Below are positions 34,920 to 55,998 of a DNA stretch of 59,861 nt, piece after piece. The notes below the pieces were generated by a model that had not been told where the DNA came from, searched no databases, and worked only from the letters and a program-made list of their open reading frames with translations. Positions within the stretch are counted from its first letter, which is position 1; each line of letters opens with the position of its first letter. The translations under genes and the position numbers were made by a program. The DNA comes from Candidatus Giovannonibacteria bacterium. Lineage in GTDB: Bacteria > Patescibacteriota > Minisyncoccia > UBA11713 > 2-01-FULL-45-33. The stretch lies in assembly GCA_030699445.1 (NCBI GenBank), contig JAUYMO010000023.1:1-59861 (forward strand), read 5' to 3'.

Positions 34920-34982
34920 GAAAACATAAAAAAAGAGCACCTCCTTGAGGCGCTCCAGTATAGGCCGAAACAGTTGATATAA
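34920..34982 (+). repeat. remnant copy 2 of the comM 3' end
   Basis: It reads KNIKKEHLLEALQYRPKQLI-stop, against EIKKEHLLEALQYRPKQLV-stop in comM. Many differences are synonymous. A stop codon lies just upstream. Confidence 0.8.
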
Positions 34983-35215
34983 ATGTATAGCTATGCTATG
35001 AATTTATCCACACACGATAACGGCTACAAATTGTTATAATAATTAAGTGCCTAATAAATGCGGGCACAGAAGGGGATAAAGGTTTTTGAATCACATTTAG
35101 GTTTTGGAGGCCTATAATGTTTGACGAATCCTAAATCTTGTAACTTCTTGGGCGTGGAATCCCTTAAAGCATCCCCTTCTGAGCTCGAACTTCCGAGACA
35201 TTTTTTATTTATTTT

Positions 35216-35611: not shown

Positions 35612-35714
35612 GTTCTAATTGTATCATGCGCAATAAAAAAAACAATAGCAAGTGTGTGGATAAGTTTTTTTAAAACTAAAAGTCCTTGTTTATAAGGTGT
35701 TTTTAGAGCGAAAC

Positions 35715-35771
35715 ATAAAAAAAGAGCACCTGCTAGAGGCGCTCCAGTATAGGCCGAAGTCGCTAATTTAG
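35715..35771 (+). repeat. remnant copy 3 of the comM 3' end
   Basis: It reads IKKEHLLEALQYRPKSLI-stop. Confidence 0.8.
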
Positions 35772-36136
35772 ATAAACCCTTTAGGCGCGGCTTCTTGCTC
35801 TTCTTGGCACAGCGGGTTTTTTTCGCCAGCCAAATCACAGAATTTTTGCTTGGTCCTAGCCAGCTTTTCATCCGCGGCTTCGTTTTCGTCTATTATTTTA
35901 GAAAGCCGCTGCTTAATCTGGGTATTTTCAGCCAGCGTTGCTTGCCTCGCTTTAATCGCAAGCTCTATTAACTCCTCCTTATGGCTGATACCGAGGTCAA
36001 CTCTTTCCGAAAAAGCTTGTTTATATTCTTTTAACGCATTATTAAGTCGGGCTTGATGAACTAGCTTTGGAATAAAGCCTGTCAGCATACCAGCAACAAA
36101 AATAACGAACGCCCAAATAAGATATCTTTTAACCAT
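35768..36136 (-). CDS. hypothetical TM plus coiled-coil protein (122 aa)
   Basis: N-terminal TM helix, then a helical region. No family recognised. Confidence 0.5.
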   Translation of the reverse strand: MVKRYLIWAFVIFVAGMLTGFIPKLVHQARLNNALKEYKQAFSERVDLGISHKEELIELAIKARQATLAENTQIKQRLSKIIDENEAADEKLARTKQKFCDLAGEKNPLCQEEQEAAPKGFI

Positions 36137-39989: not shown

Positions 39990-40770
39990 GCAAAAAAAGT
40001 TTTTGGGCCAGCATTTTCTAAAAAATAAAAAAATCTTGGAGGAGATGGCGCGCGCGGCGGAAATTTCTAAGAAAGATATTGTTTTGGAAGTCGGCCCGGG
40101 CTTGGGCTCGCTTACGGAAATTTTGGCGGAGCGCGCCGGAAAAGTAATCGCGATAGAAAAAGACAGGGATTTAATTCCTGTTTTGCGCGAGAAATTCAAA
40201 AATTATAAAAATGTTGAAATTATTGAAGGAGATATTTTAAAAATTAAATACCTCCCCTTGCCCCTCCTTGTAAAGGAGGGGATAAAACATTATAAAATTG
40301 TCGCCAATCTTCCATACTATATAACCTCGCGTTTTCTGCGCCTATTCTTGTCCCAAACCAGGTTTAGGTCAAAGCTGATGGTGCTTATGGTTCAAAAAGA
40401 AGTCGCCGAAAGAATTTTGGCGCGCGACGGAAAGGAATCTTTGCTTTCTCTTTCCGTAAAAGCTTACGCTAAAGCGGAAATTATACGGCGCGTTTCAAAA
40501 AATTTTTTCTCGCCTCCGCCAAAAGTTGATTCGGCAATAATTAAGCTAACCCCTTACCCCCAAACCCCCTTTCCCCTTCGTAAGGGGAAAGGGGGCGATG
40601 TTGAAAAAATTCTTGCCGTTGCTAAAATCGCCTTCCAGCAAAAACGCAAAATGCTCCGGCATTCTCTTTCGAGGTTCAACCTTAATAATTTAGAAGAATA
40701 TGGAAATAAGCGCCCGGAAGAACTTAGCTTTAAAGACTGGGTTCATATTCACACCCTAATTGTGCCGTAA
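39979..40770 (+). CDS. rsmA: 16S rRNA (adenine1518/1519-N6)-dimethyltransferase RsmA/KsgA
   Basis: LGQHFL, EVGPGLGSLT, ANLPYYITS and FSPPPKVDSA. Two GC hairpin elements lie inside the ORF (40251-40283 and 40550-40596). Confidence 0.9.
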   Translation: MLNKQKKFLGQHFLKNKKILEEMARAAEISKKDIVLEVGPGLGSLTEILAERAGKVIAIEKDRDLIPVLREKFKNYKNVEIIEGDILKIKYLPLPLLVKEGIKHYKIVANLPYYITSRFLRLFLSQTRFRSKLMVLMVQKEVAERILARDGKESLLSLSVKAYAKAEIIRRVSKNFFSPPPKVDSAIIKLTPYPQTPFPLRKGKGGDVEKILAVAKIAFQQKRKMLRHSLSRFNLNNLEEYGNKRPEELSFKDWVHIHTLIVP

Positions 40771-40785: not shown

Positions 40786-41808
40786 GTGGAAGAAATGGGC
40801 TATTTACCTTCAAAAAATTTCATAGCCCTTGTTTCCGCTGCCCTTGTTATTTTATTCACGGGTTGGTTTGTTTCGATGGTGTGGAATAGCGCCCCTGAAA
40901 CACTAAAAAGCCCTTCACAAGCCGCCGCCACTTCCTTTTTGGCGGCTTACCAGAACGCCAACCGCGACACAGACAACGACGGGCTGAAGGACTGGGAGGA
41001 AATTCTCTGGAAAACCGACCCAAACAAAGCCGACACGGACGGCGACGGCGCGCTTGACGGCCCAGAAGTTAAAGATGGCCGCGACCCGATGGTGGCGGGG
41101 CATAAATTGGCGAATAGCGCGTGGAATGATGTTTTAGAATCAAAAATTGAAGAAAACGCAAAAAGCAAGGAAGGAAAAACTATAACCAAGCTCGTGGCTG
41201 AAGAGTTTGCAAGTAATTATTTTCTTTCCAAGGGAGTGGAAGGAGATCTTTTGCAAAGCAGCGCTAAAAGCGACATAGCGAATTCCCTATCCGGAACAAT
41301 TGAAAAAGAAATAGCCGCGTATAAAGACGCTTTTTCTCTCAGTAATTTAAAAATCTCCCAAAATAGCGGCGGGGAATTTGCTAAAACATATTTAAATAAA
41401 ATTGGCGCGCTTCTAGAAAAAGAACCGGCGGGCACTCAAACCGCTGAACCTATAATTTTAAGGATGATTTTGGAAGAAAATAATTTTGAAAAAACGAAAC
41501 TTTTTGATCCTTATATTGAAGCTTATAAAAAATTGGTGGCGGATTTAAAAAATGTTTCGGCGCCAACCGCTTATAAAGAACTGCACCTTGAACTTATAAA
41601 CGCGCTCAACAACACGCGCCAGTCCGTAGAATTTATGAGGGGCGTAGAAAAAGATCCCGCAGGAACAATGATAGGTATTAGACTTTATATCACACAAGGA
41701 GAGAGAATAAAAAACTTTCTTATATCCATGAAAGACAGAATAGATAGTGAAAACATAACTTTTTTACAAAATGAGGGTGGGTATTTTTTCAATAAATACA
41801 CAAGATAA
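40786..41808 (+). CDS. membrane-anchored protein with thrombospondin-type-3-like Ca-binding repeats
   Basis: N-terminal TM helix, then DTDNDGLKDWEE...DTDGDGALDG (DxDxDG repeats) and a helical remainder. GTG start, or the ATG at 40795. Confidence 0.55.
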   Translation: MEEMGYLPSKNFIALVSAALVILFTGWFVSMVWNSAPETLKSPSQAAATSFLAAYQNANRDTDNDGLKDWEEILWKTDPNKADTDGDGALDGPEVKDGRDPMVAGHKLANSAWNDVLESKIEENAKSKEGKTITKLVAEEFASNYFLSKGVEGDLLQSSAKSDIANSLSGTIEKEIAAYKDAFSLSNLKISQNSGGEFAKTYLNKIGALLEKEPAGTQTAEPIILRMILEENNFEKTKLFDPYIEAYKKLVADLKNVSAPTAYKELHLELINALNNTRQSVEFMRGVEKDPAGTMIGIRLYITQGERIKNFLISMKDRIDSENITFLQNEGGYFFNKYTR

Positions 41809-41815
41809 AATTTTT

Positions 41816-43204
41816 ATGATATTGAAAAATAAAAAAATAATAATAGCGATTTTAATAACTCTAACGTTGTTTCCGCCAACATTTTTGGCGCCGAAAGCCA
41901 AGGCCTTAATAGTGCACGACCCCATACACACTGCCGTGAACCTTTCTTATTGGACTTTGGACTGGACAAAAGAGTTTGCTTTAGACAAAATCGGTTGGTA
42001 TATAGCCAAGCTTATGGTGCACGAAATTTCTCAATCCATTGTCCAATGGATCAGAACAGGTGGGCAGGGAGGCTCTCCACTTTTTGTCCGAGATTGGGAA
42101 GGATTTTTGTTAAACATTGCGGATAAAGCTGGCGGAAAAGTGCTTGAGCAATTAAAACTTACCGCGCTTTGCGAGCCCTTCGCGCTAAAGCTTCGGCTGG
42201 CTTTTGGCGTAGGCCGCAGTCCGATTCAGGAAAGGTTGCGATGCACAATTTCAGGCGTAGTTGGAAATTTGAATAATTTTTATAATGATTTTTCGCAAGG
42301 AGGCTGGCAAAGATGGATTGAAATAACCCAAACGCCGGCCAATAACCCTTATATGGCTTATTTCATCGCGCTTGATGCTAGACAAATGGCAGAAGCTTCA
42401 GCGGTAAACTCCGGCCGCAATGAAGCAATAGCGGCAGGAGGATTTTTGAGCCTTAAAAAATGCACCGTAACTCCGACTACTTTTTCGGTCACGGACGACG
42501 ACACCGGAGAAGAAAGCGAAGTTTCTTTTGATAAAGAAGATTGCCAAAACACAACGCCCGGAGCAATCGTAAACGACCAGCTTAAAAAAGTTTTCGGTTC
42601 GGAAATAGACCAGTTGAATATAGCCGATGAATTAAACGAGGTTTTGCTCGCCGCTGTGCAGCAATTAATACACACAATGCTTTTCTCCGCGGGCGGAGTT
42701 TATGAATCGGACGTCGCATCTTCCTACAAGGCGGCGGAAACAGACATTCAAAATCTTTCTGGCACGATAGAAAAAGTTTTGAAAATAGAAACAGAAATTT
42801 CCAGAGCCGAAATTATTTTAAATAAAACCGAGCGGGCGCTTTTTGCGACGCAGGATGAAATTATAGTTCTAACAAAACTCAAGGCGTGCCAAATCAATAA
42901 AAACGACAGCATATCCACCACCAATTCCAAAATAGCGTCTGCAAGTTCAACGGCGGAAATGCTTGAGACGAAAGTTAAAGAGCAAAAAGACCTGGTCGCG
43001 CTGATTAAAAACGACCGCGACAGAATCAGAAACGCTAAAAATGTATTGGAAATTGACCAGGCCTATCAAGACGCGACTTTTGATATAAGCAAAATCAGCG
43101 TACTGGAAGTAGCTCAAGCCGATTTTGACACGGCTTTGGAAAAGAAAACTCAAGCCGAAGACGATTTAGCCGTTTGCTTAAATCCTCCGGTAGTAAATCC
43201 ATGA
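41816..43204 (+). CDS. secreted protein with a C-terminal coiled coil (T4SS-like locus)
   Basis: Signal peptide MILKNKKIIIAILITLTLFPPTFLAPKAKA, with heptad-rich sequence in the last third of the protein. The ORF track extends to 41771, but 41816 fits a signal peptide. Confidence 0.55.
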   Translation: MILKNKKIIIAILITLTLFPPTFLAPKAKALIVHDPIHTAVNLSYWTLDWTKEFALDKIGWYIAKLMVHEISQSIVQWIRTGGQGGSPLFVRDWEGFLLNIADKAGGKVLEQLKLTALCEPFALKLRLAFGVGRSPIQERLRCTISGVVGNLNNFYNDFSQGGWQRWIEITQTPANNPYMAYFIALDARQMAEASAVNSGRNEAIAAGGFLSLKKCTVTPTTFSVTDDDTGEESEVSFDKEDCQNTTPGAIVNDQLKKVFGSEIDQLNIADELNEVLLAAVQQLIHTMLFSAGGVYESDVASSYKAAETDIQNLSGTIEKVLKIETEISRAEIILNKTERALFATQDEIIVLTKLKACQINKNDSISTTNSKIASASSTAEMLETKVKEQKDLVALIKNDRDRIRNAKNVLEIDQAYQDATFDISKISVLEVAQADFDTALEKKTQAEDDLAVCLNPPVVNP

Positions 43205-45996
43205 TTTTAAATAATAAAAAATTCATAACCATAATTTTCTCAATAGTGCTTTTGGGCGTGATGTTTAATTTCATCGCGGCGCCGTTGGCATTCGCAGTGA
43301 GCCACACAAACCCTCCCGCCCAGACCCAGCCACAAGTCGGAAGCCAAAAAAGCACGACGGCGCTAGATTATGCCTTTGCTTGGTCTTTAGAATCTTTCGC
43401 CGCCTTAGGAGCCGCAATCGGTCAAATCGTATCGCTATTTACATGGATTGGCGGTAAATTTTTTGATATTGCTGTTGATTATAATATTAACTTCGTGCAA
43501 GGAAAACTCGGCGCCATAATTATAGGCTGGGGGATTGTTAGAGACATAACCAACATTTTCTTCGTTTTGATTATTTTAGGCATCGCAATATCTACTATTC
43601 TCCGAATACAAGGCTACCAAGCCAAAGCATTGCTTCCAAAGCTTATCATCATCGCTCTGCTGATAAATTTCAGCTTAACTATCGGCCTGGTAATTATTGA
43701 TTTTAGCAATATTTTAGCTTTACAATTTTACGATAAGCTTAGGCCAAACAAGATTTCTATATCGGAGACTATTAACCAAATAACTAGACCGCAAAATTTT
43801 TATAATATAAATGCGCCGCCGAAAGACCAGCAGTTAACATTTGAGTTGCAGAAACCAGAAGAAGCGACTCCTTATATACTTCAAAACGGAAGCGCGCCTA
43901 ACAATACCCAAAATCAAGCTCCAGCCGCATTGCAAAATGGGTTGTGGAGTGGAACTATAAGCAGGCTTTTCGCGGGAAGTCCGGAGGCGTCAGCCGTTGT
44001 AGCCACTGCTGCTTGGGGAAATACTATTATGCTTTCTATTTTAGTATTTGTATTTTTCGTTGGCGGAGTTTTACTGCTCGTTCGCGCTGCAATTTTGGGA
44101 TTCCTTTTGGTGCTAGCGCCATTGGCTTTCCTGTTTTACATACTTCCCGACACTGAAACTCATTGGAAAAAATGGTGGAGCACTTTTATCCAGCACGTTT
44201 TCTTTTTTCCGTCTTTTCTGTTTCTTTTATATGTAGCAGTAAAATTTGTGGGCGATGCCACTAAAGGCATAGCGGCCTCGGAATTTTTGAGCAACCCCAG
44301 TCTAGTGTTTACTTATCTTTTGGCAATAATCATGCTGTTGACCGCGCTTATCTTGGGCCGAAGCATGGGTGTCTACGGAGCCGCCACGGCGATGAATTGG
44401 GCTACAAGCGGGAGAAAATGGCTCACGGGATTTGTTGGAGGAGTGGCAGCGAGGAATACTTTGGCGCCGATTGGCGAGCGTCTAAAACCCTTAGCGAACA
44501 GAGTCACGCGGGCATCGCCCTGGCTGGGAACTTACGCGCGCGGAGCCCAAGAATGGCTGGCTAAGCGCGGAGGCGCGCGCGACATGGCCGAAGACCAGGC
44601 AAAAGCCGCTTTGGCGCAGGCCAAAGGTACTTGGGGAGCGTCATTTGGAAAAGGAACTTTGCCAATGAGAGTGGGTATGCTGAAAGGTATGGATGAAAAA
44701 ACCCGCGGAGAATTTTTGGCGACGCTTCCAGGCCCTCTTCGCAAAACCGCGGACAATATTATCGCCTCGCCGCAGTTTACTTCCGCGGAACAAAAAGGTC
44801 TTGCCAAATCAAGAATGCAATATGAAATTAACCAAGCGCAACTTCAAGGAAACTTGAGCAACTTTATGGCAGGCAAAAGCGATGAGGATGCGCAAAAATA
44901 CTTTGGCGCTATGAGCGAGAATCAAAAAACCGCTTGGCTTGAAGAGGGGTATGGCAATCCGGCGACTCTTAATAAATTCGCCAAACTGACAACTGCCCAG
45001 CCGGGGCCCGAAGGAGGGCTGTCGCTGGAAGACCAGGAAAAATTCCGTCAGTCGCTTAGATCTGCTTCCGGACCGGCCGTATCCGCTTATGTTGAAAAAC
45101 TAACCGGAGACGCCAGAAAAGACGCGAGAACACAAACATTGAAAGCTCTTTCACCGGAACAACTGGCTTATCTTTATACCGAAGGAGATGACGCAAAAAG
45201 AACCGAACTTGACGGGCTTACAAAAACTCTAGCTCCCGATGTGCAGCAGAAATACAACGATGCCGCGGCTAAAATGCTTAATCAAAAACCTTCAGCCGAT
45301 TTGATAGCCGCTCTTCCCTCGCTTTCCGACGATATGACCGCGTCATTTATCCGCTCTCGCGGGGTTGACAACACAATTGATTTGATAAACGACACCGCTA
45401 CGCTGGAGCCGGTAAAAAGAAAATTATTTGGGGGTATAAAAAAAGCTGGGCTTAGCGGTCAGTATGCCAAAAAGCTAGACCCCATAACCAAAGTGAAATA
45501 TCTGGATTATGATGAATCTAAGTATGAAAATCCCAATGATTTTGAAAAGGATACGATTACATTTACTGAAGCCGTAGCCGTAGAAGTCAAAAACTCAACC
45601 GCTAGAGAGCTTGCTCAAAGAACATCCGCGAAAATTATAAGAGATAAAAACTTCAAAAATTCTCTGCTGAAAGGCGCTAGTATCGCACAGTTGGCCGCTT
45701 TGACAGACACTCCGGCTAAATCCGCGGCTCTAAAAGAGATATTAATTGAGGCGGCAGAAGATAAGAATTTATCCGCTGACAATATCGCCAAACAATTTAA
45801 AGCTAAAAATTTAAGCATACAATTGGGGGAACAGCTTGCCAATTTAAGAAGAAGACAAAAAGAAATGATGAATCAGCCGGAACGTCTGCTTTACTCGCAA
45901 ATTTTCGGAGATTTAGAGCCGGAACGCCCGAAACAACCACCGCAACCTCCTCCACGAAACGATTTTGAAGAATATAAACCACCACCTAAACCATAA
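43201..45996 (+). CDS. TrbL/VirB6-like polytopic membrane protein with a long C-terminal extension
   Basis: ATGA overlap with the upstream stop. Signal/TM helix, then at least 6 TM helices (GWGIVRDITNIFFVLIILGIAISTIL...), a roughly 500-aa soluble tail and a Pro-rich end. Family call by resemblance only. Confidence 0.6.
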   Translation: MILNNKKFITIIFSIVLLGVMFNFIAAPLAFAVSHTNPPAQTQPQVGSQKSTTALDYAFAWSLESFAALGAAIGQIVSLFTWIGGKFFDIAVDYNINFVQGKLGAIIIGWGIVRDITNIFFVLIILGIAISTILRIQGYQAKALLPKLIIIALLINFSLTIGLVIIDFSNILALQFYDKLRPNKISISETINQITRPQNFYNINAPPKDQQLTFELQKPEEATPYILQNGSAPNNTQNQAPAALQNGLWSGTISRLFAGSPEASAVVATAAWGNTIMLSILVFVFFVGGVLLLVRAAILGFLLVLAPLAFLFYILPDTETHWKKWWSTFIQHVFFFPSFLFLLYVAVKFVGDATKGIAASEFLSNPSLVFTYLLAIIMLLTALILGRSMGVYGAATAMNWATSGRKWLTGFVGGVAARNTLAPIGERLKPLANRVTRASPWLGTYARGAQEWLAKRGGARDMAEDQAKAALAQAKGTWGASFGKGTLPMRVGMLKGMDEKTRGEFLATLPGPLRKTADNIIASPQFTSAEQKGLAKSRMQYEINQAQLQGNLSNFMAGKSDEDAQKYFGAMSENQKTAWLEEGYGNPATLNKFAKLTTAQPGPEGGLSLEDQEKFRQSLRSASGPAVSAYVEKLTGDARKDARTQTLKALSPEQLAYLYTEGDDAKRTELDGLTKTLAPDVQQKYNDAAAKMLNQKPSADLIAALPSLSDDMTASFIRSRGVDNTIDLINDTATLEPVKRKLFGGIKKAGLSGQYAKKLDPITKVKYLDYDESKYENPNDFEKDTITFTEAVAVEVKNSTARELAQRTSAKIIRDKNFKNSLLKGASIAQLAALTDTPAKSAALKEILIEAAEDKNLSADNIAKQFKAKNLSIQLGEQLANLRRRQKEMMNQPERLLYSQIFGDLEPERPKQPPQPPPRNDFEEYKPPPKP

Positions 45997-46001
45997 ATAT
46001 T

Positions 46002-46709
46002 ATGGATGAAACAAATAAAAACATAGAAATAATGGAGCGATATAAAGACCTGCCGGAAGATATCCAGCAAGCTCTCTTTTCATCCGCGACTTCGGATGCG
46101 ATTTTAGCAATCGGCAAAAAAAATGGGCTGGCAATTGATAAAATCGGGGAGTTGGTTGATGAAACCGGTTTGGTAATGCTTGGAATCACTTCGCCTTCGG
46201 ATTATGTAAAAAATCTGGTGAGCCGATTAAGTGTAACGCAAGAAAAGGCGCGCGCCATCGCGGAAGAAATCAACCAAAAAGTTTTCCAGCCGGTAAGAGA
46301 GTCGCTGAAGAAGATTCATGGGTTGGCGGCAGAAAAGCCCACACCACCCCCCCCAGCCCCCCCCTTCGTAAGGGGGGGAGCTGAAGAAAAACCCCTTCCC
46401 CCTTACGAAGGGGGAAGGGAAGGGCTAGGGGTTAAAAAACCTCTCCCCAAACGCGAAGATATTGTCCCGCCGCCCAAAGCGCTTCCCAAACCGGAAATCC
46501 CGGAACCACTTCTAATCCCGCCGATTTTCGTTAAAAAATTTCCCGAGCCGATAGTTTCTAAACCCGATATTGTTCCTCCCGCGAAAGAACCGTTGCCGCA
46601 AGATTCTCTCGCGGCCAAAAGCGCGCTGGATAAAGAATTAAACGCTCCGCCATCACCGCGGCCACAGCAGTATAAAGAAAAAGACCCTTATCGTGAGATA
46701 ATAGAATAA
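46002..46709 (+). CDS. Pro-rich protein (T4SS-like locus)
   Basis: Globular N-terminal 105 aa, then a P-rich tail that includes two C-run/G-run hairpin elements (46357-46378 and 46393-46419). Confidence 0.5.
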   Translation: MDETNKNIEIMERYKDLPEDIQQALFSSATSDAILAIGKKNGLAIDKIGELVDETGLVMLGITSPSDYVKNLVSRLSVTQEKARAIAEEINQKVFQPVRESLKKIHGLAAEKPTPPPPAPPFVRGGAEEKPLPPYEGGREGLGVKKPLPKREDIVPPPKALPKPEIPEPLLIPPIFVKKFPEPIVSKPDIVPPAKEPLPQDSLAAKSALDKELNAPPSPRPQQYKEKDPYREIIE

Positions 46710-46710
46710 T

Positions 46711-47133
46711 ATGCAGCACCAAGTCCCACAATTTATAGATATAGAAGATAAAATTTTCGGGCCTTTAACGGCCAAGCAGTTTTTCTATATCTTGGGCGGC
46801 GCCGCTATTCTTTTTATAATGTACGTTTATCTTCAGCTTTGGCTGGTAATTATTCTTGGCGCTCCGGTCGCGGCGTTCGCCGGTTCTCTGGCGTTTTTGA
46901 AAATCAACGGCCAGCCATTTATTAAAATTCTTGGGAGCGCCATAGATTACGCTTCTTCGGCAAGATTATATTTGTGGAAGAAGAGCCCGCCGCGCGGGAA
47001 AACACTCGGTGTTTTTGGGGATTCAACACCGAGTGTTGAGGAGCGCGAGCGGGCTACAACCCCCAAACTCACCCAAAGCAAATTACAAGATTTATCCTGG
47101 TCCTTAGACATCCAAAAAAATATTAAACGATAA
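46711..47133 (+). CDS. PrgI-family (VirB3-analogue) membrane protein
   Basis: QVPQFIDIEDKIFGPLTAKQFFYILGG plus two TM helices, directly upstream of VirB4-like genes. It carries the 37-nt element at 47001-47037. Confidence 0.65.
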   Translation: MQHQVPQFIDIEDKIFGPLTAKQFFYILGGAAILFIMYVYLQLWLVIILGAPVAAFAGSLAFLKINGQPFIKILGSAIDYASSARLYLWKKSPPRGKTLGVFGDSTPSVEERERATTPKLTQSKLQDLSWSLDIQKNIKR

Positions 47134-47135
47134 AT

Positions 47136-47783
47136 ATGGCTAACGCTTTACCATCGCAAGACATTTTAAAGATAGAAGAAATCCGTGACGGCGTCATGGT
47201 TTTAAAAGACGGCTCTTTGCGCGCCGTGATGATGGCTTCTTCTTTGAATTTTTCCTTAAAAAGCGCGGATGAGCAGACCGCCGTCATTATGCAGTACCAA
47301 AATTTCCTGAACTCTTTGGATTTCACGGTGCAATTTTTTCTGGAGTCGCGAAAATTAAATATTGAGCCATATCTTGACACTTTAAAAGAAGCCGAGGCAA
47401 AACAAACCAACGAACTTTTGAAAATTCAGATAACGGAATATATAGAATTTATCCGCACCTTCGTCCGCGCGGCGAATATCGTGAGCAAAAATTTTTATAT
47501 TGTCGTGCCTTTCACTCCCGCGCTTTTTACGACGCCGAAGGAAGGGGTAAAAAGTTTGTTGGGAATTTTCGGAAAAAAATCCGCGGAAAATAAAAATCTG
47601 CCGCAGGATAAATTTGACGAATACAAAAATCAGCTCTGGCAAAGAGTGGACAGTGTAATTCAAGGCCTGGTGCGGACAGGCGTCAGGGCGGTTCCATTAA
47701 ACACCGAGGAATTAATTGAGCTTTTTTACAGCCTTTACAACCCGGGCGAATTAGAAAAAGGAAAGCCCCCGGCATTAACATAA
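47136..47783 (+). CDS. VirB4 N-terminal-domain-like protein (215 aa)
   Basis: ILKIEEIRDGVMVLKDGSLRAVMMASSLNFSLKSADEQ... resembles the N-terminal region of VirB4/TrsE-type proteins. No NTP-binding motif. Confidence 0.45.
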   Translation: MANALPSQDILKIEEIRDGVMVLKDGSLRAVMMASSLNFSLKSADEQTAVIMQYQNFLNSLDFTVQFFLESRKLNIEPYLDTLKEAEAKQTNELLKIQITEYIEFIRTFVRAANIVSKNFYIVVPFTPALFTTPKEGVKSLLGIFGKKSAENKNLPQDKFDEYKNQLWQRVDSVIQGLVRTGVRAVPLNTEELIELFYSLYNPGELEKGKPPALT

Positions 47784-47787
47784 ATTT

Positions 47788-49599
47788 ATGGCTTTTTTAG
47801 ATATCTTCAAGAAAAAAGAAAAAGAAACGGAAATCACGCCGGTTTTTCCGGAGGAAATTTACCGCGCCGGCGTTTTGGAATTAAAAGACGTCATCGCGCC
47901 CGCCGCTTTGGAGGTCACTGCCAACCACATGAGATTGGGCGAGAAGCTGATGCGGACAATTTTTATTTTTTCGCTTCCCAGATTCCTTTCATCCAACTGG
48001 TTTTCTCCAATAATAAATTTGGATAAGGTTTTTGACGTTTCCATATTCGTGCATCCGGTGAACACCGCCGCGGTTTTAAAAAAGCTCCAGCGGAAAGTCG
48101 CCGAAGTGCAGTCGCAGGTTTCCATCCGGCAGGAGAAAGGGCTTGTGCGCGATCCTGTTTTGGACACAGCTTTCCAGGATTTGGAGGCCTTGCGCGACAA
48201 GCTCCAGCAGGCGCAGGAAAGATTATTTAATTTTGGCCTTTACATCGCGGTTTACGGAAACACCATAGAAGAGTTGGACAAGGCGGAGACGGAAATAAAA
48301 TCCATGCTGGAATCGCGCCTGGTTTACGCCAAGCCCGCGCTTTTCCAGCAAAAAGAGGCGCTGGATTCCGTTTTTCCGCAGGCCTTGGACACTCTCGGCG
48401 TTAATACTTACCTGAATTCCTCTCCGGCATCCAGTATCTTTCCGTTTGTTTCTTTTGATCTCACTTCCAATAGGGGGATTCTTTACGGCATCAATTCGCA
48501 TAATAATTCGCTGATTTTATTTGACCGCTTCAGTTTGGAAAATTATAACTCGGTAATTTTCGCCAAAGCCGGCGCCGGAAAATCTTACACAACAAAGCTG
48601 GAAATACTGCGCTCGCTGATGTTTGAAACGGATGTCATCGTCATAGACCCGGAAAAAGAATACGAATATCTCGCCGAGGCGGTGGGCGGAAGATATTTTA
48701 ATATATCTTTGACCTCGCACCACCATATCAATCCTTTTGACCTGCCGATGCCGCGGGAGGATGAATCGCCAGCGGATGTTTTGCGCTCGCACATCATAAA
48801 TTTGGTCGGTCTTTTCAGAATTATGCTTGGAGGGCTCACGCCGGAAGAAGATTCCGTCATTGACCGCGCCATCACCGAAACTTACGCTTCGCGCGACATC
48901 ACGCCGGATTCTGATTTTTCAAAAGCCACTCCGCCGATACTTTCCGATTTGGAATTGGTTATCGCCAACATGGAAGGAGGCGAATCCTTGGCGCAGCGCC
49001 TGCGAAAATTTACCAAAGGCACCTGGGCGGGATTTATAAACCAGCCGACCAATGTTGATATCAACCAAAAATGCGTGGTTTTTTCCGTCCGCGACATGGA
49101 GGATGAATTGCGGCCGGTCGCGATGTATCTGATAATCCACTATATCTGGAGCGCCATACGCGCGAACATTAAAAAAAGATTACTGGTGGTGGACGAGGCA
49201 TGGTGGATTATGAAAAATGAAGACGGGGCGTCGTTTCTTTTCGGCATCGCCAAGCGCGCCAGAAAATATTATCTGGGACTTGCCACAATCACCCAGGACG
49301 TCGGCGACTTTTTAAATTCGCCCTACGGAAAACCTTTAATTACGAACTCTTCCATTCAAATTTTATTGCGCCAGTCTCCGGCATCAATTGACCTTTTAAA
49401 ACAAACTTTCAATTTAACAGACGAAGAAAAATTTTTGCTTCTTGAATCCGATGTCGGCGAGGGGTTATTTTTCGCGGGACTAAAACATGTCGCCATCAAA
49501 ATACTTGCTTCCTACACCGAAGACCAATTAATCACATCCGACCCCGCCCAGCTTTTGGCGATTAAAAAGGCGAAAGAGGATTTTAAGCAACAAACATAA
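47788..49599 (+). CDS. VirB4/TrsE-like type IV secretion ATPase
   Basis: Walker A in AKAGAGKSYTTK, Walker B in LLVVDEAWWIM, and a downstream ATITQDVGDF motif. 603 aa. Confidence 0.8.
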   Translation: MAFLDIFKKKEKETEITPVFPEEIYRAGVLELKDVIAPAALEVTANHMRLGEKLMRTIFIFSLPRFLSSNWFSPIINLDKVFDVSIFVHPVNTAAVLKKLQRKVAEVQSQVSIRQEKGLVRDPVLDTAFQDLEALRDKLQQAQERLFNFGLYIAVYGNTIEELDKAETEIKSMLESRLVYAKPALFQQKEALDSVFPQALDTLGVNTYLNSSPASSIFPFVSFDLTSNRGILYGINSHNNSLILFDRFSLENYNSVIFAKAGAGKSYTTKLEILRSLMFETDVIVIDPEKEYEYLAEAVGGRYFNISLTSHHHINPFDLPMPREDESPADVLRSHIINLVGLFRIMLGGLTPEEDSVIDRAITETYASRDITPDSDFSKATPPILSDLELVIANMEGGESLAQRLRKFTKGTWAGFINQPTNVDINQKCVVFSVRDMEDELRPVAMYLIIHYIWSAIRANIKKRLLVVDEAWWIMKNEDGASFLFGIAKRARKYYLGLATITQDVGDFLNSPYGKPLITNSSIQILLRQSPASIDLLKQTFNLTDEEKFLLLESDVGEGLFFAGLKHVAIKILASYTEDQLITSDPAQLLAIKKAKEDFKQQT

Positions 49600-49602
49600 T
49601 TT

Positions 49603-50037
49603 ATGGACGAAACAGCGACAAATTACGCGAATCTCCAGCAGGCCCGCAACGCGGACCAAGCCGCGGCGCCGGCCGCATCCGCTAAAGCAGCAGTCGCCAA
49701 AATGAGCGCGATTACAGCTACTTTATTTATTCTGGTAGCTTTGGGAATTGACGGTCTCCAGGTTCTTTTAATATCCATACCATACGCGGGTGTTGTGTTA
49801 AACTTGATAGTAAGCATATTTGCCTGGATGATTTTCTTCGTCTGGCTAAAAAGTTTGGGCATTTCCGGAAGTATTAAAAAAGATAAAGACCTTCAGAGAT
49901 TAATATTTCTTGCTTCAGCATTTGGGTTTGAACTTCTGCCGATTTTAGATTCACTTCCCGGGTGGACAGCTTTTGCTTTAGGGACGGTAATTATTGAATA
50001 CAGCGGCGAGATTTTAGAAAAAAAGAATGATAAATAA
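49603..50037 (+). CDS. small polytopic membrane protein (T4SS-like locus)
   Basis: Three to four TM helices after an Ala-rich N-terminus. Confidence 0.5.
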   Translation: MDETATNYANLQQARNADQAAAPAASAKAAVAKMSAITATLFILVALGIDGLQVLLISIPYAGVVLNLIVSIFAWMIFFVWLKSLGISGSIKKDKDLQRLIFLASAFGFELLPILDSLPGWTAFALGTVIIEYSGEILEKKNDK

Positions 50038-51013
50038 AATTTATAAAAATTTAATAATCATTTTGTTTCTAGTTTTAGCATCGCGCTCACATGCCCTATT
50101 ACTTTCTTCGCCAACCGATCTTACTCTAACCTTAAGTCCGGAATCGCCGCGAGCCGGCAGTAAATTTACGGCTGAAGTAAAAACGTTTGTCTTTGAGCCG
50201 GTCCGGGCAAATTTTAGATGGTTTTTAAACGGCAAAGAAATTGTTTCCGGACGCGGTATAGTAAAAGAAGCATTCACGGCAGGCACTTTGGGCGCCAATA
50301 TGACAATACGAGTAGTGGCAACTTCCGCCGAAGGAGATGTTTTTGAAACCCAAACCGTCGTCTCAATCGGCGATATAGATTTTATTCTCATCCCGCTCAC
50401 TTATACGCCTAGTTTTTACAAAGGAGCCGCTTTGCCTACGCCGGGGAGTTTATTAGAAATTTTTGCTGTCCCTCATATTTTCAAAGCCCAAAATCGGCTC
50501 AACTCTAATAACTTAATTTATGAGTGGAGCATAGACAACCAGCCACTGCCGGATAAATCCGGGGAAGGAAAAAATGCGCTTGCGGTGCAACTGGCCGATG
50601 TCAGCGGATCAGAATACGATGTTATGCTTAAAGTAAGCTCTTTGGACAGAAGCGCCATTTTGCAAAAACATATCTCAATTAAAACTTATGAGCCGGAAAT
50701 TTTATTTTACGAAACAAATTCGCTTACCGGATTGAAGCCCGCGGCGCTGAATTCTTTTTCGGGCAGGGCGGGAGATTCGTTTTCAATATTGGCGGAGCCC
50801 TTTTATTTTGATTTGGCGTCTTTGGCGCGCGCAAAATTTAACTGGAGTGCCGGCGGAGTGGCAGCCGAACCAAACGCAAAAAATCCGCTGCTTCTGGAAC
50901 TTGCCGCTCCGGCAAATACCGACTCGCAAACTGCTTTTAATTTAAAAATTGAAGACCGCAAAACGCTTTTCCAGCAAGCCGAAGCATTAATAAATATTTA
51001 CGCCACAAAATGA
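50027..51013 (+). CDS. secreted protein (T4SS-like locus)
   Basis: Signal peptide (LIIILFLVLASRSHA), with beta-rich-looking sequence. It overlaps the upstream ORF by 11 nt. Confidence 0.5.
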   Translation: MINKIYKNLIIILFLVLASRSHALLLSSPTDLTLTLSPESPRAGSKFTAEVKTFVFEPVRANFRWFLNGKEIVSGRGIVKEAFTAGTLGANMTIRVVATSAEGDVFETQTVVSIGDIDFILIPLTYTPSFYKGAALPTPGSLLEIFAVPHIFKAQNRLNSNNLIYEWSIDNQPLPDKSGEGKNALAVQLADVSGSEYDVMLKVSSLDRSAILQKHISIKTYEPEILFYETNSLTGLKPAALNSFSGRAGDSFSILAEPFYFDLASLARAKFNWSAGGVAAEPNAKNPLLLELAAPANTDSQTAFNLKIEDRKTLFQQAEALINIYATK

Positions 51014-51909
51014 AAAAGAAAATTTTAATGCCGATATTTTTATTCTCCCTTGCCGGCACGGCTTTGGCGTATAATTTGCTCCAGCCGCTTCCGGGCGTGG
51101 GACAGACTGTTGATACTTTCCCGAATTACATTGCTGGAATTATTCCTTTTATTTTGGGCTTGGCGGCGGTGCTCGCGGTGGTGGAAATTGTTATCGGAGG
51201 AATAGAATACGCCGTCACGGAAGCGATTGACTCCAAAGCTGACGCCAAAGACCGCATCACCCAAGCGATTTTGGGGCTTTTGCTCGCGCTCGCATCCTGG
51301 CTGATTCTTTGGACAATAAATCCAGCCTTGGTAAATTTGCATTTAACAATCCCTGAATTAATTTTGCCGACGCAAGACCAAACACAACAACAAACAGGAC
51401 CGCCGTGGACAGACCAAGAAAAACAAGTACAGCTTTCAACGAGGCCCGGAGGAACGGTAACGTGTTTTACATATAATCCCGCAATTAATAGGCGCGGAGT
51501 AAGAACATTTGGTGACAGCAGTAAAACAATAGATCAGCTTAATGCGCAATGCCAACAGCAATGCGTTCAAGCAGCGCAAACCACAGGAACTCAAGCAGAA
51601 TGCGTTGCAAGCACAAATCCAATAAATACTTCTCCAATCGTATTGCCATCGCAAGCGCATTGCACCGTTACCGGCCAATGTTCAGTAATCGGCACCGGAA
51701 ATTCTTGTACAAACGCTTCGGAATGTACGGTTACAACGGCACCGCCAGGCCAAAAAACTTATTGTATCTTAGATGCTGGGAATCAACCCCCGAACTGTAC
51801 TCTTCATCAAGAAATAGAACAATCGAGTTGTTCACAAGCATCTTGTCAGGTTGCAACACCATTAGGAAATGCTTGTCCGAATGCAACAGCTATTTGTGTC
51901 ATAAAATAA
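51010..51909 (+). CDS. T4SS-pilin-like protein with a Cys-rich C-terminal domain
   Basis: Signal peptide, two TM helices and LALASWLILWTINPALV, as in the CPR pilin-like family. About 165 C-terminal residues follow with 14 Cys and many Thr/Gln. ATGA overlap upstream. Confidence 0.6.
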   Translation: MKKKILMPIFLFSLAGTALAYNLLQPLPGVGQTVDTFPNYIAGIIPFILGLAAVLAVVEIVIGGIEYAVTEAIDSKADAKDRITQAILGLLLALASWLILWTINPALVNLHLTIPELILPTQDQTQQQTGPPWTDQEKQVQLSTRPGGTVTCFTYNPAINRRGVRTFGDSSKTIDQLNAQCQQQCVQAAQTTGTQAECVASTNPINTSPIVLPSQAHCTVTGQCSVIGTGNSCTNASECTVTTAPPGQKTYCILDAGNQPPNCTLHQEIEQSSCSQASCQVATPLGNACPNATAICVIK

Positions 51910-52159
51910 ATAGACAAATCATGGAAAATTTATTAACTATAAAGAAATCTAATAAAAAAATATGAAAGAATTTTTACAGCCAAACGAATCGCCGGCTAAA
52001 GACTTTGCTATCGTTATAGATTTTATTAAGAATTTAATGAAAAAAACGAACCCCGCCTAAGCGGGGTTCTCGGAGGCCGAAGCCAATGTGTACTGCCATT
52101 ATATCACCCGCAAAAACCTTGTCAATAGACTTATCCACAATATAAAATACAATAAATTT

Positions 52160-52873
52160 ATGAAAGAATCTTTTCAACCAAGTGAATCGCCGGAGAAAGA
52201 GAAGGGGTCTCTTTGGCAAACGTTTAGAGATATGAAAAACGCGGTGGCGTTCGCGGCGCTTTTGGCGTTCGCCGCTCCGGGGATTACCTCCGCCCAAGAA
52301 AAAGAAACTCGCCCGGAAGGAACAAAAATCAGCGATACGGAAAGGGGAATTGAAAAAATAAAAGAAGATGTTTTAAAAATCGCCGAGAGCTTGAAAATAA
52401 AAGGGCGAGAGGGAAAATTCGGGCAAACGGCAACTCGCAGGTGGGTTTCAGAAAATAAGGAGGTTATTGTCGCTGGTTACGAAAATGATGGCAAGGCGCG
52501 CTGGATAATTTTAGAGAATGAAAACGCGCAGATGAGATTTTTTGATATGTCGGCGGATGGCTCTGTGAATAGAGTTATTATTAACGATGAAAAATCGCCC
52601 GCCGGAAGAAAGGCAACCGATAATGATATAAAAACTTTTGTTTCTATGGATAAATTAGCCAAAGACGCACGCGTATCAGCTGATTTAATGCCGGAAAAAG
52701 CGCATGTGTACGAGCTCGGAAAAGAAAACAATGAGATTATACTGCGCGGAGTTGATTTTGAAAAAGGTGAGTCCGAAAAAGTAATCGGGCCGGAAGCAAA
52801 AAAGCTCGCGGAAAGAGTCCAAAACTTATTTAACGCGAAAGTCGCCCAACACAGCGCGGAGCTTGCGAAATAA
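52160..52873 (+). CDS. secreted hypothetical protein
   Basis: ATG at 52160 after a TTGTCA-16-TATAAA promoter. Signal-like AVAFAALLAFAAPGITSAQE. The ORF track starts at the GTG at 52088. Confidence 0.5.
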   Translation: MKESFQPSESPEKEKGSLWQTFRDMKNAVAFAALLAFAAPGITSAQEKETRPEGTKISDTERGIEKIKEDVLKIAESLKIKGREGKFGQTATRRWVSENKEVIVAGYENDGKARWIILENENAQMRFFDMSADGSVNRVIINDEKSPAGRKATDNDIKTFVSMDKLAKDARVSADLMPEKAHVYELGKENNEIILRGVDFEKGESEKVIGPEAKKLAERVQNLFNAKVAQHSAELAK

Positions 52874-52874
52874 A

Positions 52875-54101
52875 ATGGAAAATTTATTAACAAAAAGAAA
52901 TATAATAATCGCGGGGGTGGGAATAGTTATTCTCATCGGAATTTTGTTTTATTTTGGGTCAAAAAGCGGGACGCAGGGAACGGGAGGGGGGGGATTTTTA
53001 GGAACTATTTTTCCGTCTTCGGCGCCCTCCCCAACACTCGGTGTTGGCGGGCCTCAAACACCGAGTGTTTTGCCAGGCGGCGAACTGCCTCTAACCCCTC
53101 AAGCCGCCCAAAGTTTGCCTGTGGGCACATTAATTCGCTTGAGTGATGATAATATTTCTTCTCTTGTTGGAGTTGGCACAACGTCAGTCCGCTACCATAA
53201 AAATATTCCTGAAAATCTTGGGCATCTTTTTGAAAGGCGCGCGGACGGCGCGAGCGAAGAAAAAAGGATTTCCAATTTCACCATTCCGCAGGTTTTGCGC
53301 GTGGTCTGGGCGCCGGACGCCAAGCGCGCCGTGATTTTTTATAATTTAGATAATCAAATAAGAAAACTTTTGATTGATTACTCAACCACAACCCCAAAAA
53401 CGAATTTTCTTCCGGACGCCGTTTCGGATGTGGCTTTTTCTCCCGATTCCAAATCGCTGGCGTTTATAAATGATAGTGGTGACACCCAAAATATTTTTAC
53501 GGCAACGTCTGATTTTAAAAACCAAAGAAAAATTTTGGATAACGACATTCCTGGCCTGGAAATTTCCTGGCCGGCCGCGAACACAATCGCTTTAAAAACA
53601 AAATCATCCTACGCCGTGCGCGGATTTTTATACGCGGTTAATATAGGAAGCGGGGCATTTTCAAAAATCGCCGAAGGGCTGGGCTTGGACGCCATTTGGA
53701 ATAAAGACGGCTCGGGAGTGCTTTATTCCAGAAGCGACGCGGACGGCAATATATTGAACATTAAATTTTTGGACATAAAAACCGGCGCGGAAAAAGAATT
53801 TTCAGTAAAAACCATCGCTGAAAAATGCGCGTTTTTAAATACCTTAAAAAATATCGCTTACTGCGGAGTCCCCCGATTAAGCGCAGGCCGGATTACCGAA
53901 AAGCAGCCCGACGCATGGTGGCAGGGAAAAGTAAGTTTCCAAGATAATTTTGTTTCGCTGGACACCGCGACCGGCCAAAATTCTGTTTTTGTCCCGACTC
54001 CCACAGACATTACCCAGCCAAAACTGCTTTTAGACGATTCTTCCCTCCTTTTCCGCGACAAAACCTCCGGCAATCTTTGGAGCTTAAAATTGAAGCCTTA
54101 G
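52875..54101 (+). CDS. membrane-anchored TolB-like beta-propeller protein
   Basis: TM helix (IIIAGVGIVILIGILFYF), a Gly/Pro linker with the 37-nt element (53033-53069), and PD40-like repeats (VAFSPDSKSLAFINDSGD). Confidence 0.5.
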   Translation: MENLLTKRNIIIAGVGIVILIGILFYFGSKSGTQGTGGGGFLGTIFPSSAPSPTLGVGGPQTPSVLPGGELPLTPQAAQSLPVGTLIRLSDDNISSLVGVGTTSVRYHKNIPENLGHLFERRADGASEEKRISNFTIPQVLRVVWAPDAKRAVIFYNLDNQIRKLLIDYSTTTPKTNFLPDAVSDVAFSPDSKSLAFINDSGDTQNIFTATSDFKNQRKILDNDIPGLEISWPAANTIALKTKSSYAVRGFLYAVNIGSGAFSKIAEGLGLDAIWNKDGSGVLYSRSDADGNILNIKFLDIKTGAEKEFSVKTIAEKCAFLNTLKNIAYCGVPRLSAGRITEKQPDAWWQGKVSFQDNFVSLDTATGQNSVFVPTPTDITQPKLLLDDSSLLFRDKTSGNLWSLKLKP

Positions 54102-54790: not shown

Positions 54791-55544
54791 GTGAAAGCGC
54801 CTCCTTCGCTTTTTTGCGAACGCGCGCTTCGTGCACTATAGCAAAAACATTCATGGCTGTCCAATATAGAGAAACCGCGGCCGGCAGTTTAAAGCCCAAA
54901 ATAAAAATAATAAATGGGAAAATGTAAAGCATCTGCCATTGCATCGCCTGCGCCATACCCGCCTGCCGGTCGGGCAGGTCACCTTTGGCGGGAGATGCGG
55001 ATTTGGGCGGCCCGCCTGCCGGCGAGGCAGGCATAGCCAGTTTTGCCTGCCAAAATTGTGAAAGCGCCGCTAAAGCGGCTAATCCAACATTCGCGCTGGT
55101 TAAAGAAATAAAACCTAAAAACATTGTATTTATATTTTCCGGTATTTTTAAAAAAGAATAAACATCGCCGGCCGGAAAAGGAAGCCCATACAAAAAAACC
55201 TGGTACATGGCAAAAAGTATCGGGAGCTGGATTAGCAGCATGCCAAATCCGGAAAGCGGATTTATGCCGTGTTTTTTGTAAAGCTCCATCAAAGCTTTGG
55301 CCTGGTCTTCTTTGTTTTTTTTGTCCGCGTAGATTTTTTTGACTTCCGGCTCAATAATTTTCATCGCGTTTTGAGTTTTGAGCATTTTATGCGTCATCGG
55401 AAACATCAGCGCCCTTATTATCACGGTGAGCAAAATAACCGCCAAACCCAAATCGTGCCCCGGAAGCACCGCGGTTAAAAAGATAAGCGCGTTTAAAATC
55501 GGCTTGTAAAAAAATATGTTAAAAAATATTTTGAGCCAGGACAT
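54777..55544 (-). CDS. yidC: membrane protein insertase YidC (short form)
   Basis: LAVILLTVIIRALMFPMTHK, ELYKKHGINPLSG and AVSLYWTAMNVF. It contains two palindromic elements (54958-54978 and 55011-55031). Confidence 0.88.
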   Translation of the reverse strand: MSWLKIFFNIFFYKPILNALIFLTAVLPGHDLGLAVILLTVIIRALMFPMTHKMLKTQNAMKIIEPEVKKIYADKKNKEDQAKALMELYKKHGINPLSGFGMLLIQLPILFAMYQVFLYGLPFPAGDVYSFLKIPENINTMFLGFISLTSANVGLAALAALSQFWQAKLAMPASPAGGPPKSASPAKGDLPDRQAGMAQAMQWQMLYIFPFIIFILGFKLPAAVSLYWTAMNVFAIVHEARVRKKAKEALSHAGG

Positions 55545-55857
55545 ATTTTATATCTTCTCTAATCTCCGTAAAAGATGGGGATTTTCTTTCCGATAATTTA
55601 ATAAAAAAAACAACATCCCGGCCAGCGGGAATTGTCTTTAAAAAACTTTTCGCGGCTTCGGCCATGCGCCTTCTGGCAAGATTTCTTAAAGCCGCGCCGC
55701 GATTTTTAGGCCCGGAAACTATAAAGGCAAAGCGGTTTATAAATTTCCCATTGCGAAAAACTTTTACCGAAACGATTTTTCCGCGGAAACTCCGCGTTTT
55801 TGACCTAAAAATTTTTGCCAAATCCGCACGGCCCAACCTTAACGCTTTTTTCAGCAT
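55519..55857 (-). CDS. rnpA: ribonuclease P protein component
   Basis: Basic 112-aa protein (FAFIVSGPKNRGAALRNLARRRMAE) in the canonical rpmH-rnpA-yidC order. Confidence 0.8.
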   Translation of the reverse strand: MLKKALRLGRADLAKIFRSKTRSFRGKIVSVKVFRNGKFINRFAFIVSGPKNRGAALRNLARRRMAEAAKSFLKTIPAGRDVVFFIKLSERKSPSFTEIREDIKYVLAQNIF

Positions 55858-55863: not shown

Positions 55864-55998
55864 TTAAACCGCCAGGCGGTATCTGCCTTTTTGGCGCCTT
55901 CTGGCCAGCACGTTTTTGCCTGTTTTTGAGCGCATTCTCTTTAAAAATCCGTGCTTCTTGGCTCTTTTTCTTTTTTTGGGCTGATAAGTGACTGACAT
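55864..55998 (-). CDS. rpmH: 50S ribosomal protein L34
   Basis: [44 protein letters not shown], 44 aa. Not in the ORF track because it is under 60 aa. Confidence 0.9.

Follow-up and report, generated by a model that had tools for sequence, protein, structure and literature searches.

Patescibacteria possess type IV secretion systems (T4SSs) that a 2025 review treats as a recognized T4SS subtype. In a survey of 3,035 genomes from the candidate phyla radiation (CPR), VirB4 was found in 2,417, and the CPR VirB4 proteins form a clade nested in MPF-FATA, where MPF stands for mating-pair formation (Quinonero-Coronel et al., 2025; PMC12102498). According to the same survey, TrsD, PrgI/VirB3, VirB6 and VirB2-like pilins are encoded near virB4, relaxases are almost always absent, genes for the type IV coupling protein (T4CP) lie far from virB4, and VirB8-like and VirB1-like components are rare; in Paceibacteria and Microgenomatia, virB4 is located near dnaA, dnaN, rnpA, ksgA and rpmH. 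A transposon-sequencing (Tn-seq) study has shown that, for Southlakia (Saccharibacteria) to grow as an epibiont, the T4SS and the pilin array are essential, and has remarked that a coupling protein and a relaxase are missing (Wang et al., 2023; PMC10633639). Tubular structures at the interface between parasite and host have also been reported (bioRxiv 10.64898/2026.06.21.733656). Here, we describe a locus of this kind at positions 40786-54101 of a contig from Candidatus Giovannonibacteria (GenBank assembly GCA_030699445.1, contig JAUYMO010000023.1). The whole stretch analyzed, 59,861 nt (~60 kb), is referred to as the window, and coordinates count from its first letter.

The locus very probably encodes the type IV secretion-like system that is resident in Patescibacteria and passed on vertically, and its VirB4 is a putative member of the clade nested in the monoderm MPF-FATA systems. 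Homology shows the predicted products to include a VirB4 ATPase with a TrsD-like N-terminal domain supplied in trans, a PrgI/VirB3 protein, an extended VirB6 and one VirB2-type pilin. Judged by its sequence, the organization of the locus is typical of Paceibacteria, and its closest relatives are metagenome-assembled genomes of Candidatus Giovannonibacteria (among the best 80 of 388 relatives). The machine is most likely not conjugative, and its likeliest role is the exchange of macromolecules between the epibiont and the host bacterium that it depends on. This is no new kind of system, as it was already described between 2023 and 2025. A reading of the same DNA made earlier from its letters and open reading frames (ORFs) alone, hereafter the sequence-only reading, had said that T4SS-like genes were noted in Patescibacteria before. 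That is true but understated: because the system itself, the absence of a relaxase, the VirB2-like pilins and the location close to the origin (PMC12102498), as well as the essentiality (PMC10633639), are all published, the novelty is low. What is new here is the annotation of accessory genes, namely a triple immunoglobulin-like (Ig-like) protein, a TolB-like propeller, a protein with bacterial TSP3 repeats, a family represented by the second gene (g2) and a protein ending in a DPYRE peptide. The main text of PMC12102498 never mentions TolB, a propeller or TSP3 and leaves the g2 family and the DPYRE protein without a name; genes lacking annotation are drawn in grey in its Figure 6.

The ORF listing gives 12 non-nested ORFs between 40786 and 54101, all on the plus strand (Table 1); the count of thirteen in the sequence-only reading is reached only when a 32-aa fragment at 51963-52061 is included. 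From 41816 to 51909 the genes abut or overlap throughout, with junctions as that reading had described them: an ATGA overlap between the end of g2 (43204) and the ATG of g3 (43201), gaps of 1-5 nt at 45996/46002, 46709/46711, 47133/47136, 47783/47788 and 49599/49603, and overlaps at 50027/50037 and 51010/51013, the latter again an ATGA. A 250-nt spacer then follows g10 (after 51909), the true ATG of g11 being at 52160. On the 5′ side uvrD overlaps rsmA (ksgA), which ends 15 nt before g1. On the 3′ side lie jag, yidC, rnpA and rpmH on the minus strand and then dnaA and dnaN on the plus strand. These flanking genes are the canonical origin-region set. Of the claim that the locus lies about 2 kb from oriC, the distance holds for the start of dnaA, which is 2 kb from the end of the locus, and oriC itself is inferred. 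Near-consensus DnaA boxes occur before dnaA and twice in the dnaA-dnaN spacer; 22 boxes are present in the window versus 10 expected, and no single spacer concentrates them. The GC content of the locus shows no deviation.

Table 1. Genes of the T4SS-like locus and of its flanks, with positions in the window.
Gene	Position	Strand	Assignment
uvrD	38193-39989		5′ flank
rsmA/ksgA	39979-40770		5′ flank
g1	40786-41808	+	Membrane-anchored protein with bacterial TSP3 (DxDxDG calcium-binding) repeats and a ~200-aa C-terminal domain
g2	41816-43204	+	Secreted or anchored protein; Cys-containing N-domain and coiled coil
g3	43201-45996	+	Extended VirB6/TrbL-like polytopic protein
g4	46002-46709	+	Cytoplasmic protein without transmembrane segment; N-domain, Pro-rich linker, C-terminal motif
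g5	46711-47133	+	PrgI/VirB3-like small membrane protein
g6	47136-47783	+	TrsD-like; VirB4 N-terminal domain as a separate polypeptide
g7	47788-49599	+	VirB4-family ATPase without the N-domain
g8	49603-50037	+	Small polytopic membrane protein, 3-4 transmembrane segments (Kyte-Doolittle scan)
g9	50027-51013	+	N-terminal anchor or signal peptide and three tandem Ig-like beta-sandwich domains
g10	51010-51909	+	VirB2-type T4SS pilin core and variable C-terminal extension
g11	52160-52873	+	Lineage-specific membrane or secreted protein
g12	52863-54101	+	Transmembrane-anchored TolB-like beta-propeller with a conserved Cys pair
jag		-	3′ flank (R3H)
yidC		-	3′ flank
rnpA	55519-55857	-	3′ flank
rpmH	55864-55998	-	3′ flank
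dnaA	56109-57473	+	3′ flank
dnaN		+	3′ flank

As a VirB4 ATPase, g7 carries a Walker A motif (AGAGKSYT, aa 261) and a Walker B motif (LLVVDEAW, aa 465), and its best curated model is that of the Firmicute CD1110 family (NCBIfam conju_CD1110), which it matches with 363.9 bits against a cutoff of 325 (E = 1.6e-108), spanning profile positions 184-732 of 752. Its Pfam matches are P-loop_TraG (E = 1.2e-22), AAA_10 and DUF87, and its best match in the PDB is 4ag5, the C-terminal domain of a Firmicute VirB4 (E = 1.3e-41), followed by R388 TrwK (E = 7e-9). The part of VirB4 that precedes this region is found in g6, which matches positions 2-119 of the CD1110 VirB4 model (2.7e-7) and TrsD (5.8e-6) in NCBIfam; among its orthologues, 44 of 45 match VirB4 N-regions and 39 of 45 match TrsD, and the TraC-like annotation PF26593 has been recorded for some. 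All g6 scores are under the cutoffs of the full-length models, as expected of a fragment, and the g6 profile found no useful match in the PDB. Was VirB4 perhaps split by a frameshift or a sequencing error at 47783/47788? This was ruled out because g6 and g7 are separate ORFs in 75 loci and keep stable sizes (medians 217 and 606 aa); the N-domain is thus a conserved polypeptide of its own.

Two further core parts are membrane proteins. g5, two genes upstream of virB4 in the window and present in 73 loci, scores 43.6 bits against the Pfam PrgI cutoff of 27 (E = 4.3e-11). In g3, a Kyte-Doolittle scan gives about seven hydrophobic segments within aa 1-390, followed by a charged, Cys-free tail of ~540 aa, hence the name extended VirB6; the tail varies in length between genomes (length range 519-1252 aa). 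A membrane-domain profile built from 51 g3 orthologues has TrwI, the VirB6 of R388 (7o3v_F), as its sole PDB match (E = 7e-4), aligned to residues 136-317, and 17 of the 51 orthologues match Pfam TrbL (best 1.2e-10). An annotation as TrbL_3/TrbL is recorded for the orthologue in the relative L083.

The core of g10 (aa 30-105), with a signal peptide and two hydrophobic helices, has the layout of VirB2. Its score against PF18895 is 24.9 bits (E = 2.2e-5), just under the cutoff of 26.6, and of 51 syntenic orthologues 46 match that model (best 8e-11) and 8 match TrbC/VirB2 (PF04956). Beyond the core lies a hypervariable C-terminal extension, which is ~190 aa long and includes 14 Cys; in relatives whose VirB4 is at least 84% identical, g10 orthologues range from 157 to 450 aa and their extensions from ~50 to 340 aa. 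g10 is the only pilin-like ORF in the window, no further paralogue being found there. In the Parcubacteria relative L064, a PF18895 pilin-like module (14579-15829) is fused to a C-terminal SLT_3 lysozyme-like domain and is followed by a second pilin-like gene. A PF18895 module can therefore anchor a VirB1-like hydrolase. The variability of the g10 tail and the L064 fusion are consistent with a variable surface for host contact, and also with a role as a membrane anchor. The four parts named in the sequence-only reading, VirB4-type ATPase, PrgI/VirB3-like protein, TrbL/VirB6-like protein and pilin, have thus been recovered, the VirB6-like one through its orthologue profile only.

How widely is this arrangement kept? 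A VirB4 search with one genome per species gave 388 relatives, whose loci were put in order of VirB4 similarity. Among the best 80, every genome was assembled from a metagenome or a single cell, those bearing a taxon name all belong to Patescibacteria/Parcubacteria, and the closest, with 90-97% VirB4 identity, are Candidatus Giovannonibacteria. The order uvrD-rsmA-g1-g2-g3-g4-g5-g6-g7-(g8)-g9-g10-g12-jag-yidC-dnaA-dnaN is found in essentially all 37 loci of at least 20 kb, and two contigs reached through distant g2 homologues contain the same module, annotated as TrbL, PrgI, TraC-like and VirB4. In all, some 40 Paceibacteria genomes with sufficient flanking sequence preserve the order of the module. 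Across the 80 species VirB4 is 70-97% identical (median 73%), while the median identity in the same genomes is 52% for DnaA and 37.5% for DnaN; VirB4 identity exceeds that of DnaA in 39 of 39 paired loci, a comparison slightly biased by the ranking on VirB4 similarity. The difference between 73% and 52% suggests that VirB4 is under strong purifying selection.

Mobility genes were not found in the 60 kb. A Pfam scan of window ORFs of at least 100 aa lying outside longer assigned ORFs revealed neither a relaxase nor a VirD4/TraG coupling protein, and neither VirB11 nor VirB9/10, in the 59.9-kb window; the scan left out a few short minus-strand ORFs (e.g., 35768-36136), which are too small for a relaxase or a coupling protein. 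No homologue of VirB5, B7, B8, B9, B10, B11 or D4 was detected. Neither direct or att-like repeats bracketing the locus nor a flanking integrase was found. The scanned ORFs outside the locus are housekeeping genes, except for two IS200-like genes and one Xer-type recombinase. The sequence-only reading had noted these absences and had argued from them for a resident envelope machine rather than a conjugative element; the core homologies, the lack of mobility genes in 60 kb and the gene order kept across Paceibacteria lineages all agree with it.

The exceptions are two IS200/Y1-transposase-like ORFs of 223 aa each and a Xer-type tyrosine recombinase (13093-13764, 24592-25263, 25264-26136; - strand). 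The second IS200-like ORF abuts the recombinase gene, the sole tyrosine recombinase, which lies 15 kb off among housekeeping genes, and all three are unrelated to the T4SS locus. A 63-nt segment occurs in three direct copies (34509-34571, 34922-34984 and 35711-35773; 71-86% identical), the first spanning the 3′ end of comM (33040-34569), with perfect DnaA-box nonamers at 35004 and 35655 adjoining the second and third. The copies resemble att-like repeats belonging to small insertions at the 3′ end of comM; no matching copy was found beyond the T4SS locus, and in L083 the interval between comM and the gene described next holds different genes. This gene (36938-37948, minus strand) encodes a LysM and Peptidase_M23 protein; it is divergent, just upstream of uvrD and 3 kb from the locus, and it occupies the same position in L024, L052, L062, L067 and L083. 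Its product could be a candidate wall hydrolase of the T4SS or a plain division hydrolase.

Besides the core, the module contains further genes. One of them is g9, present in 75 loci. An AlphaFold2 (AF2) model with a predicted local distance difference test (pLDDT) score of 89.7 consists of an N-terminal helix and three tandem Ig-like sandwiches, and the top Foldseek matches are tandem Ig-like arrays (NCAM Ig1-3, SGBP-B, SbsB, Hoc and SiiE); PF06832 is carried by some relatives. With its N-terminal transmembrane segment and ~330 aa, g9 was considered as a VirB8/TcpC-like protein. This was ruled out by the confident three-sandwich model, and the NTF2/VirB8 fold is absent among the 50 Foldseek matches listed. 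g12, with an N-terminal transmembrane segment, is found in 60 loci, always directly before jag/yidC, as the conserved last gene of the module; the profile of its orthologues matches TolB structures (E = 2.7e-8 to 1e-6). At the other end g1, the conserved first gene, matches Pfam TSP3_bac (E = 1.3e-9), has one N-terminal transmembrane segment and lies immediately upstream of g2 in each of the 39 loci that contain it.

In g2 itself, a conserved N-domain of ~280 aa that contains Cys is followed by a coiled coil, which is C-terminal and variable. No match was found in Pfam, NCBIfam or the PDB, and a weak DUF4141 match appears in 2 of 43 family members. A search with the g2 profile yields 5,694 clusters at 50% identity, of which 3,384 reach E <= 1e-30; g2 therefore represents a large uncharacterized family, whose distant members occupy the same position in the module. 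In an AF2 model from a 13-sequence alignment, the coiled coil is confident and the N-domain has pLDDT < 50. Lying just upstream of VirB6, g2 was also tried as a VirB5-like protein or a wall hydrolase; profiles of 42 and 53 sequences gave only coiled-coil noise in the PDB, and neither role found support.

g4 has a conserved N-domain of ~105 aa, a hypervariable Pro-rich linker and, in the orthologue alignment, an invariant C-terminal DPY(R/K)E, mostly as DPYREPIE at the extreme end of the protein. In all, 63 loci carry the motif, which is confined to ORFs at the g4 position and appears once per locus, twice in L064. g4 has no family match in Pfam or NCBIfam and none in the PDB; the terminal motif looks like a short docking peptide. 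g8 has no Pfam family. About 45 of 75 loci have comparable multi-transmembrane ORFs (46 in all) between virB4 and g9, and in 17 loci virB4 and g9 abut with no such ORF between them; g8 is thus a frequent but non-universal member. A counterpart of g11 was detected in L032 only, and g11 is probably a variable insert, not a core part. Of what the sequence-only reading had said of these genes, the transmembrane protein with DxDxDG repeats and the anchored beta-propeller are borne out; the lack of a nameable family stands for g2, g4 and g8 and falls for 47136-47783, the TrsD-like VirB4 N-domain; and 52160-52873, which it had counted as a partner in the locus, is a lineage-specific insert.

The spacer between g10 and g11 (51910-52159) has features of its own. 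It contains a strong hairpin (52048-52069) with a T-run on the minus strand, a perfect minus-strand promoter, TTGACA-16-TATAAT with an extended -10 (52125 to 52098), and a perfect DnaA box at 52131. The start of g11 is partly duplicated over 70 nt (51933-52002 versus 52131-200), which gives the 32-codon ORF. The spacer may be a tiny antisense or terminator unit, or the scar of a gene insertion. Two families of short palindromes are intragenic and lie in poorly conserved linker regions: CCCCTTCGTAAGGGG occurs three times (40573-40587 in rsmA, 46361-46375 and 46399-46413 in g4; 0.11 expected), and the hairpin AACACTCGGTGTT-N11-AACACCGAGTGTT twice (47001-47037 in g5 and 53033-53069 in g12; 0.05 expected). 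In close relatives the palindromes are in different genes (L001 8627-8663; L032 8502 and 14592; L005 15480), which, by analogy with Rickettsia palindromic elements, suggests small mobile elements inserted in frame.

The closest described counterparts are the Patescibacteria-clade T4SS (PMC12102498) and, among systems studied experimentally, the T4SS of Ca. Southlakia epibionticum ML1 (SEML1_0006-0019; PMC10633639). VirB4 is accompanied in both by a TrsD-like protein of its own ORF, by PrgI/VirB3, by an extended VirB6 and by a VirB2-like PF18895 pilin; a relaxase or T4CP is nearby in neither, the chromosomal position beside dnaA/dnaN/rnpA/rpmH/ksgA is common to them, and an exported Ig-like protein is adjacent in both, in Southlakia the PEGA/Ig-like SEML1_0005. 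The saccharibacterial locus differs in its six tandem short pilins, three lysozyme-like domains, pair of VirB6-like proteins and NTF2-like protein. In the Paceibacteria-type module there is a single pilin, whose Cys-rich tail is long and variable, and the operon encodes no hydrolase. g1 (TSP3), g2, g4 (DPYRE) and g12 (TolB-like) are present here and not discussed in PMC12102498 or PMC10633639. With MPF-FATA systems (Trs/Tra of pGO1/pIP501, Prg of pCF10 and the C. difficile CTn with CD1110), the locus shares a CD1110-type VirB4, TrsD, PrgI and a VirB6-like protein, and alike they lack a VirB7/9/10 outer core and VirB11. Those systems are mobile, have a relaxase, a T4CP, a VirB1-like SLT/CHAP hydrolase, VirB8-like NTF2 proteins and surface adhesins, and have no VirB2 pilin; this locus shows none of these features, encodes a pilin and keeps a fixed chromosomal place. 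MPF-T systems (R388 Trw and Agrobacterium VirB) share homologues of VirB3, VirB4, VirB6 and VirB2, but here the cell is monoderm, VirB6 has a ~540-aa tail of cytoplasmic type and the VirB4 N-domain is separate. H. pylori ComB and archaeal Ced are likewise VirB4-based, relaxase-free, chromosomal and resident; ComB keeps VirB7-10 homologues and Ced uses CedA/CedA1/CedA2 with the CedB ATPase, none of which was found here as a partner.

Several points weigh against regarding the locus as a resident, non-conjugative T4SS. The machine is predicted from its genes, and the operon is a putative one, deduced from gene spacing. g1, g2, g4, g9 and g12 are putative members, assigned by conserved synteny. 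The window copy of g3 alone matches no VirB6 model in Pfam or NCBIfam, no VirB8-like (NTF2-fold) subunit was identified in the locus, and no locus ORF matches SLT, CHAP or lysozyme models, so far as VirB1 is concerned. The ~190-aa C-terminal domain of g10 may clash with the helical packing of VirB2-type pilins; because the L064 pilin-like module carries a lysozyme-like domain, the g10 'pilin' could be a membrane anchor and not a filament subunit. In many CPR genomes, T4CP homologues are distant from virB4 (PMC12102498); a coupling protein or a relaxase may lie elsewhere in this genome.

If the locus is such a T4SS, the following outline can be drawn by analogy with the solved R388 T4SS. VirB4/TrsD hexamers would dock on VirB3 and on a VirB6 platform in the cytoplasmic membrane, and this motor would drive extraction of the VirB2-type pilin and its polymerization into a filament or conduit crossing the wall. 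The variable Cys-rich tail of g10 would face outward and meet the host cell. The N-terminal transmembrane or signal segments and the conserved Cys residues suggest that g2, the g10 tail and g12 are extracytoplasmic; the VirB6 tail and g4 contain no Cys and would be cytoplasmic. g1, g2, g9 and g12 would form a wall-spanning scaffold that replaces VirB8/VirB1 and the diderm core and also takes the place of the adhesins of Gram-positive systems, and g4 would be a cytoplasmic adaptor or a substrate, docking via its C-terminal DPYRE peptide.

Taken as a whole, a more specific version is put forward tentatively: the conserved unnamed genes may be dedicated subunits of a Paceibacteria-specific T4SS architecture. 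In this version, all parts of which are meant jointly, g2 might be a stalk or tip component in the role of VirB5/VirB8; the triple-Ig protein, the TolB-like propeller and the TSP3 protein might form a wall-spanning sheath; g4 might be a cytoplasmic tether or cargo on the split VirB4/TrsD via DPYRE; and the hypervariable Cys-rich tail of g10 might set host specificity.

In which direction would macromolecules move? That the machine imports DNA, RNA or other macromolecules from the host into a nucleotide-auxotrophic epibiont, like H. pylori ComB or archaeal Ced, is somewhat unlikely; it is the hypothesis favored in PMC12102498, and a preprint ties VirB4 to feeding on host RNA (bioRxiv 10.64898/2026.06.21.733656). 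The window has no relaxase or T4CP, as in ComB, while equivalents of VirB7/9/10 (ComB7-10) were not found in the window scans. g7 has weak NCBIfam matches to the DNA-import ATPases CedB (2.9e-10; 39 bits versus a cutoff of 700) and CedD (8.9e-4), which are far weaker than its match to conjugative VirB4, and in the module neither a nuclease nor a component that binds nucleic acids was identified. In addition, comEC is dispensable in Southlakia while the T4SS is essential (PMC10633639), so import through ComEC is not the essential step. Import is rated slightly above export because of the auxotrophy of the organism and the absence of a coupling protein.

Export of effectors or toxins into or onto the host bacterium, with g4 as the cognate substrate or adaptor, is considered unlikely. 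T4SS substrates typically bear C-terminal signals, and g4, encoded in the operon and a putative substrate or adaptor, has a disordered linker and the invariant C-terminal DPY(R/K)E, which is confined to ORFs at that position. Wang et al. (PMC10633639) have suggested protein export or an alternative role. Against this, the window has no coupling protein, which most effector translocators need, with Ptl and Brucella VirB as exceptions (PMC12102498), and no effector-like genes were recognized beside the locus.

That the locus is a decayed or domesticated remnant of an integrative and conjugative element near the origin, without current function, is hinted at by the monoderm conjugative type of its VirB4 (CD1110 family) and by the IS200-like transposase and tyrosine recombinase genes elsewhere in the window, but is practically untenable because of conserved synteny and VirB4 conservation above that of DnaA: none of the 12 ORFs is disrupted, dozens of species and several candidate phyla-level groups share an identical gene order, flanking direct repeats were not found, and the recombinase is distant, among housekeeping genes.

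A resident T4SS-like machine for exchange with the host thus remains the preferred reading of this locus, which is a clean and complete example of the Paceibacteria-type module. Its residual interest lies in five accessory genes, which are conserved and are defined targets; in one of them the terminal peptide is sharply conserved. Few machines have been shown to be essential to epibiotic life in this very large uncultivated radiation; the patescibacterial T4SS is one of these, and the finding that its VirB4 is more conserved than DnaA underlines the central place of the machine in these cells.

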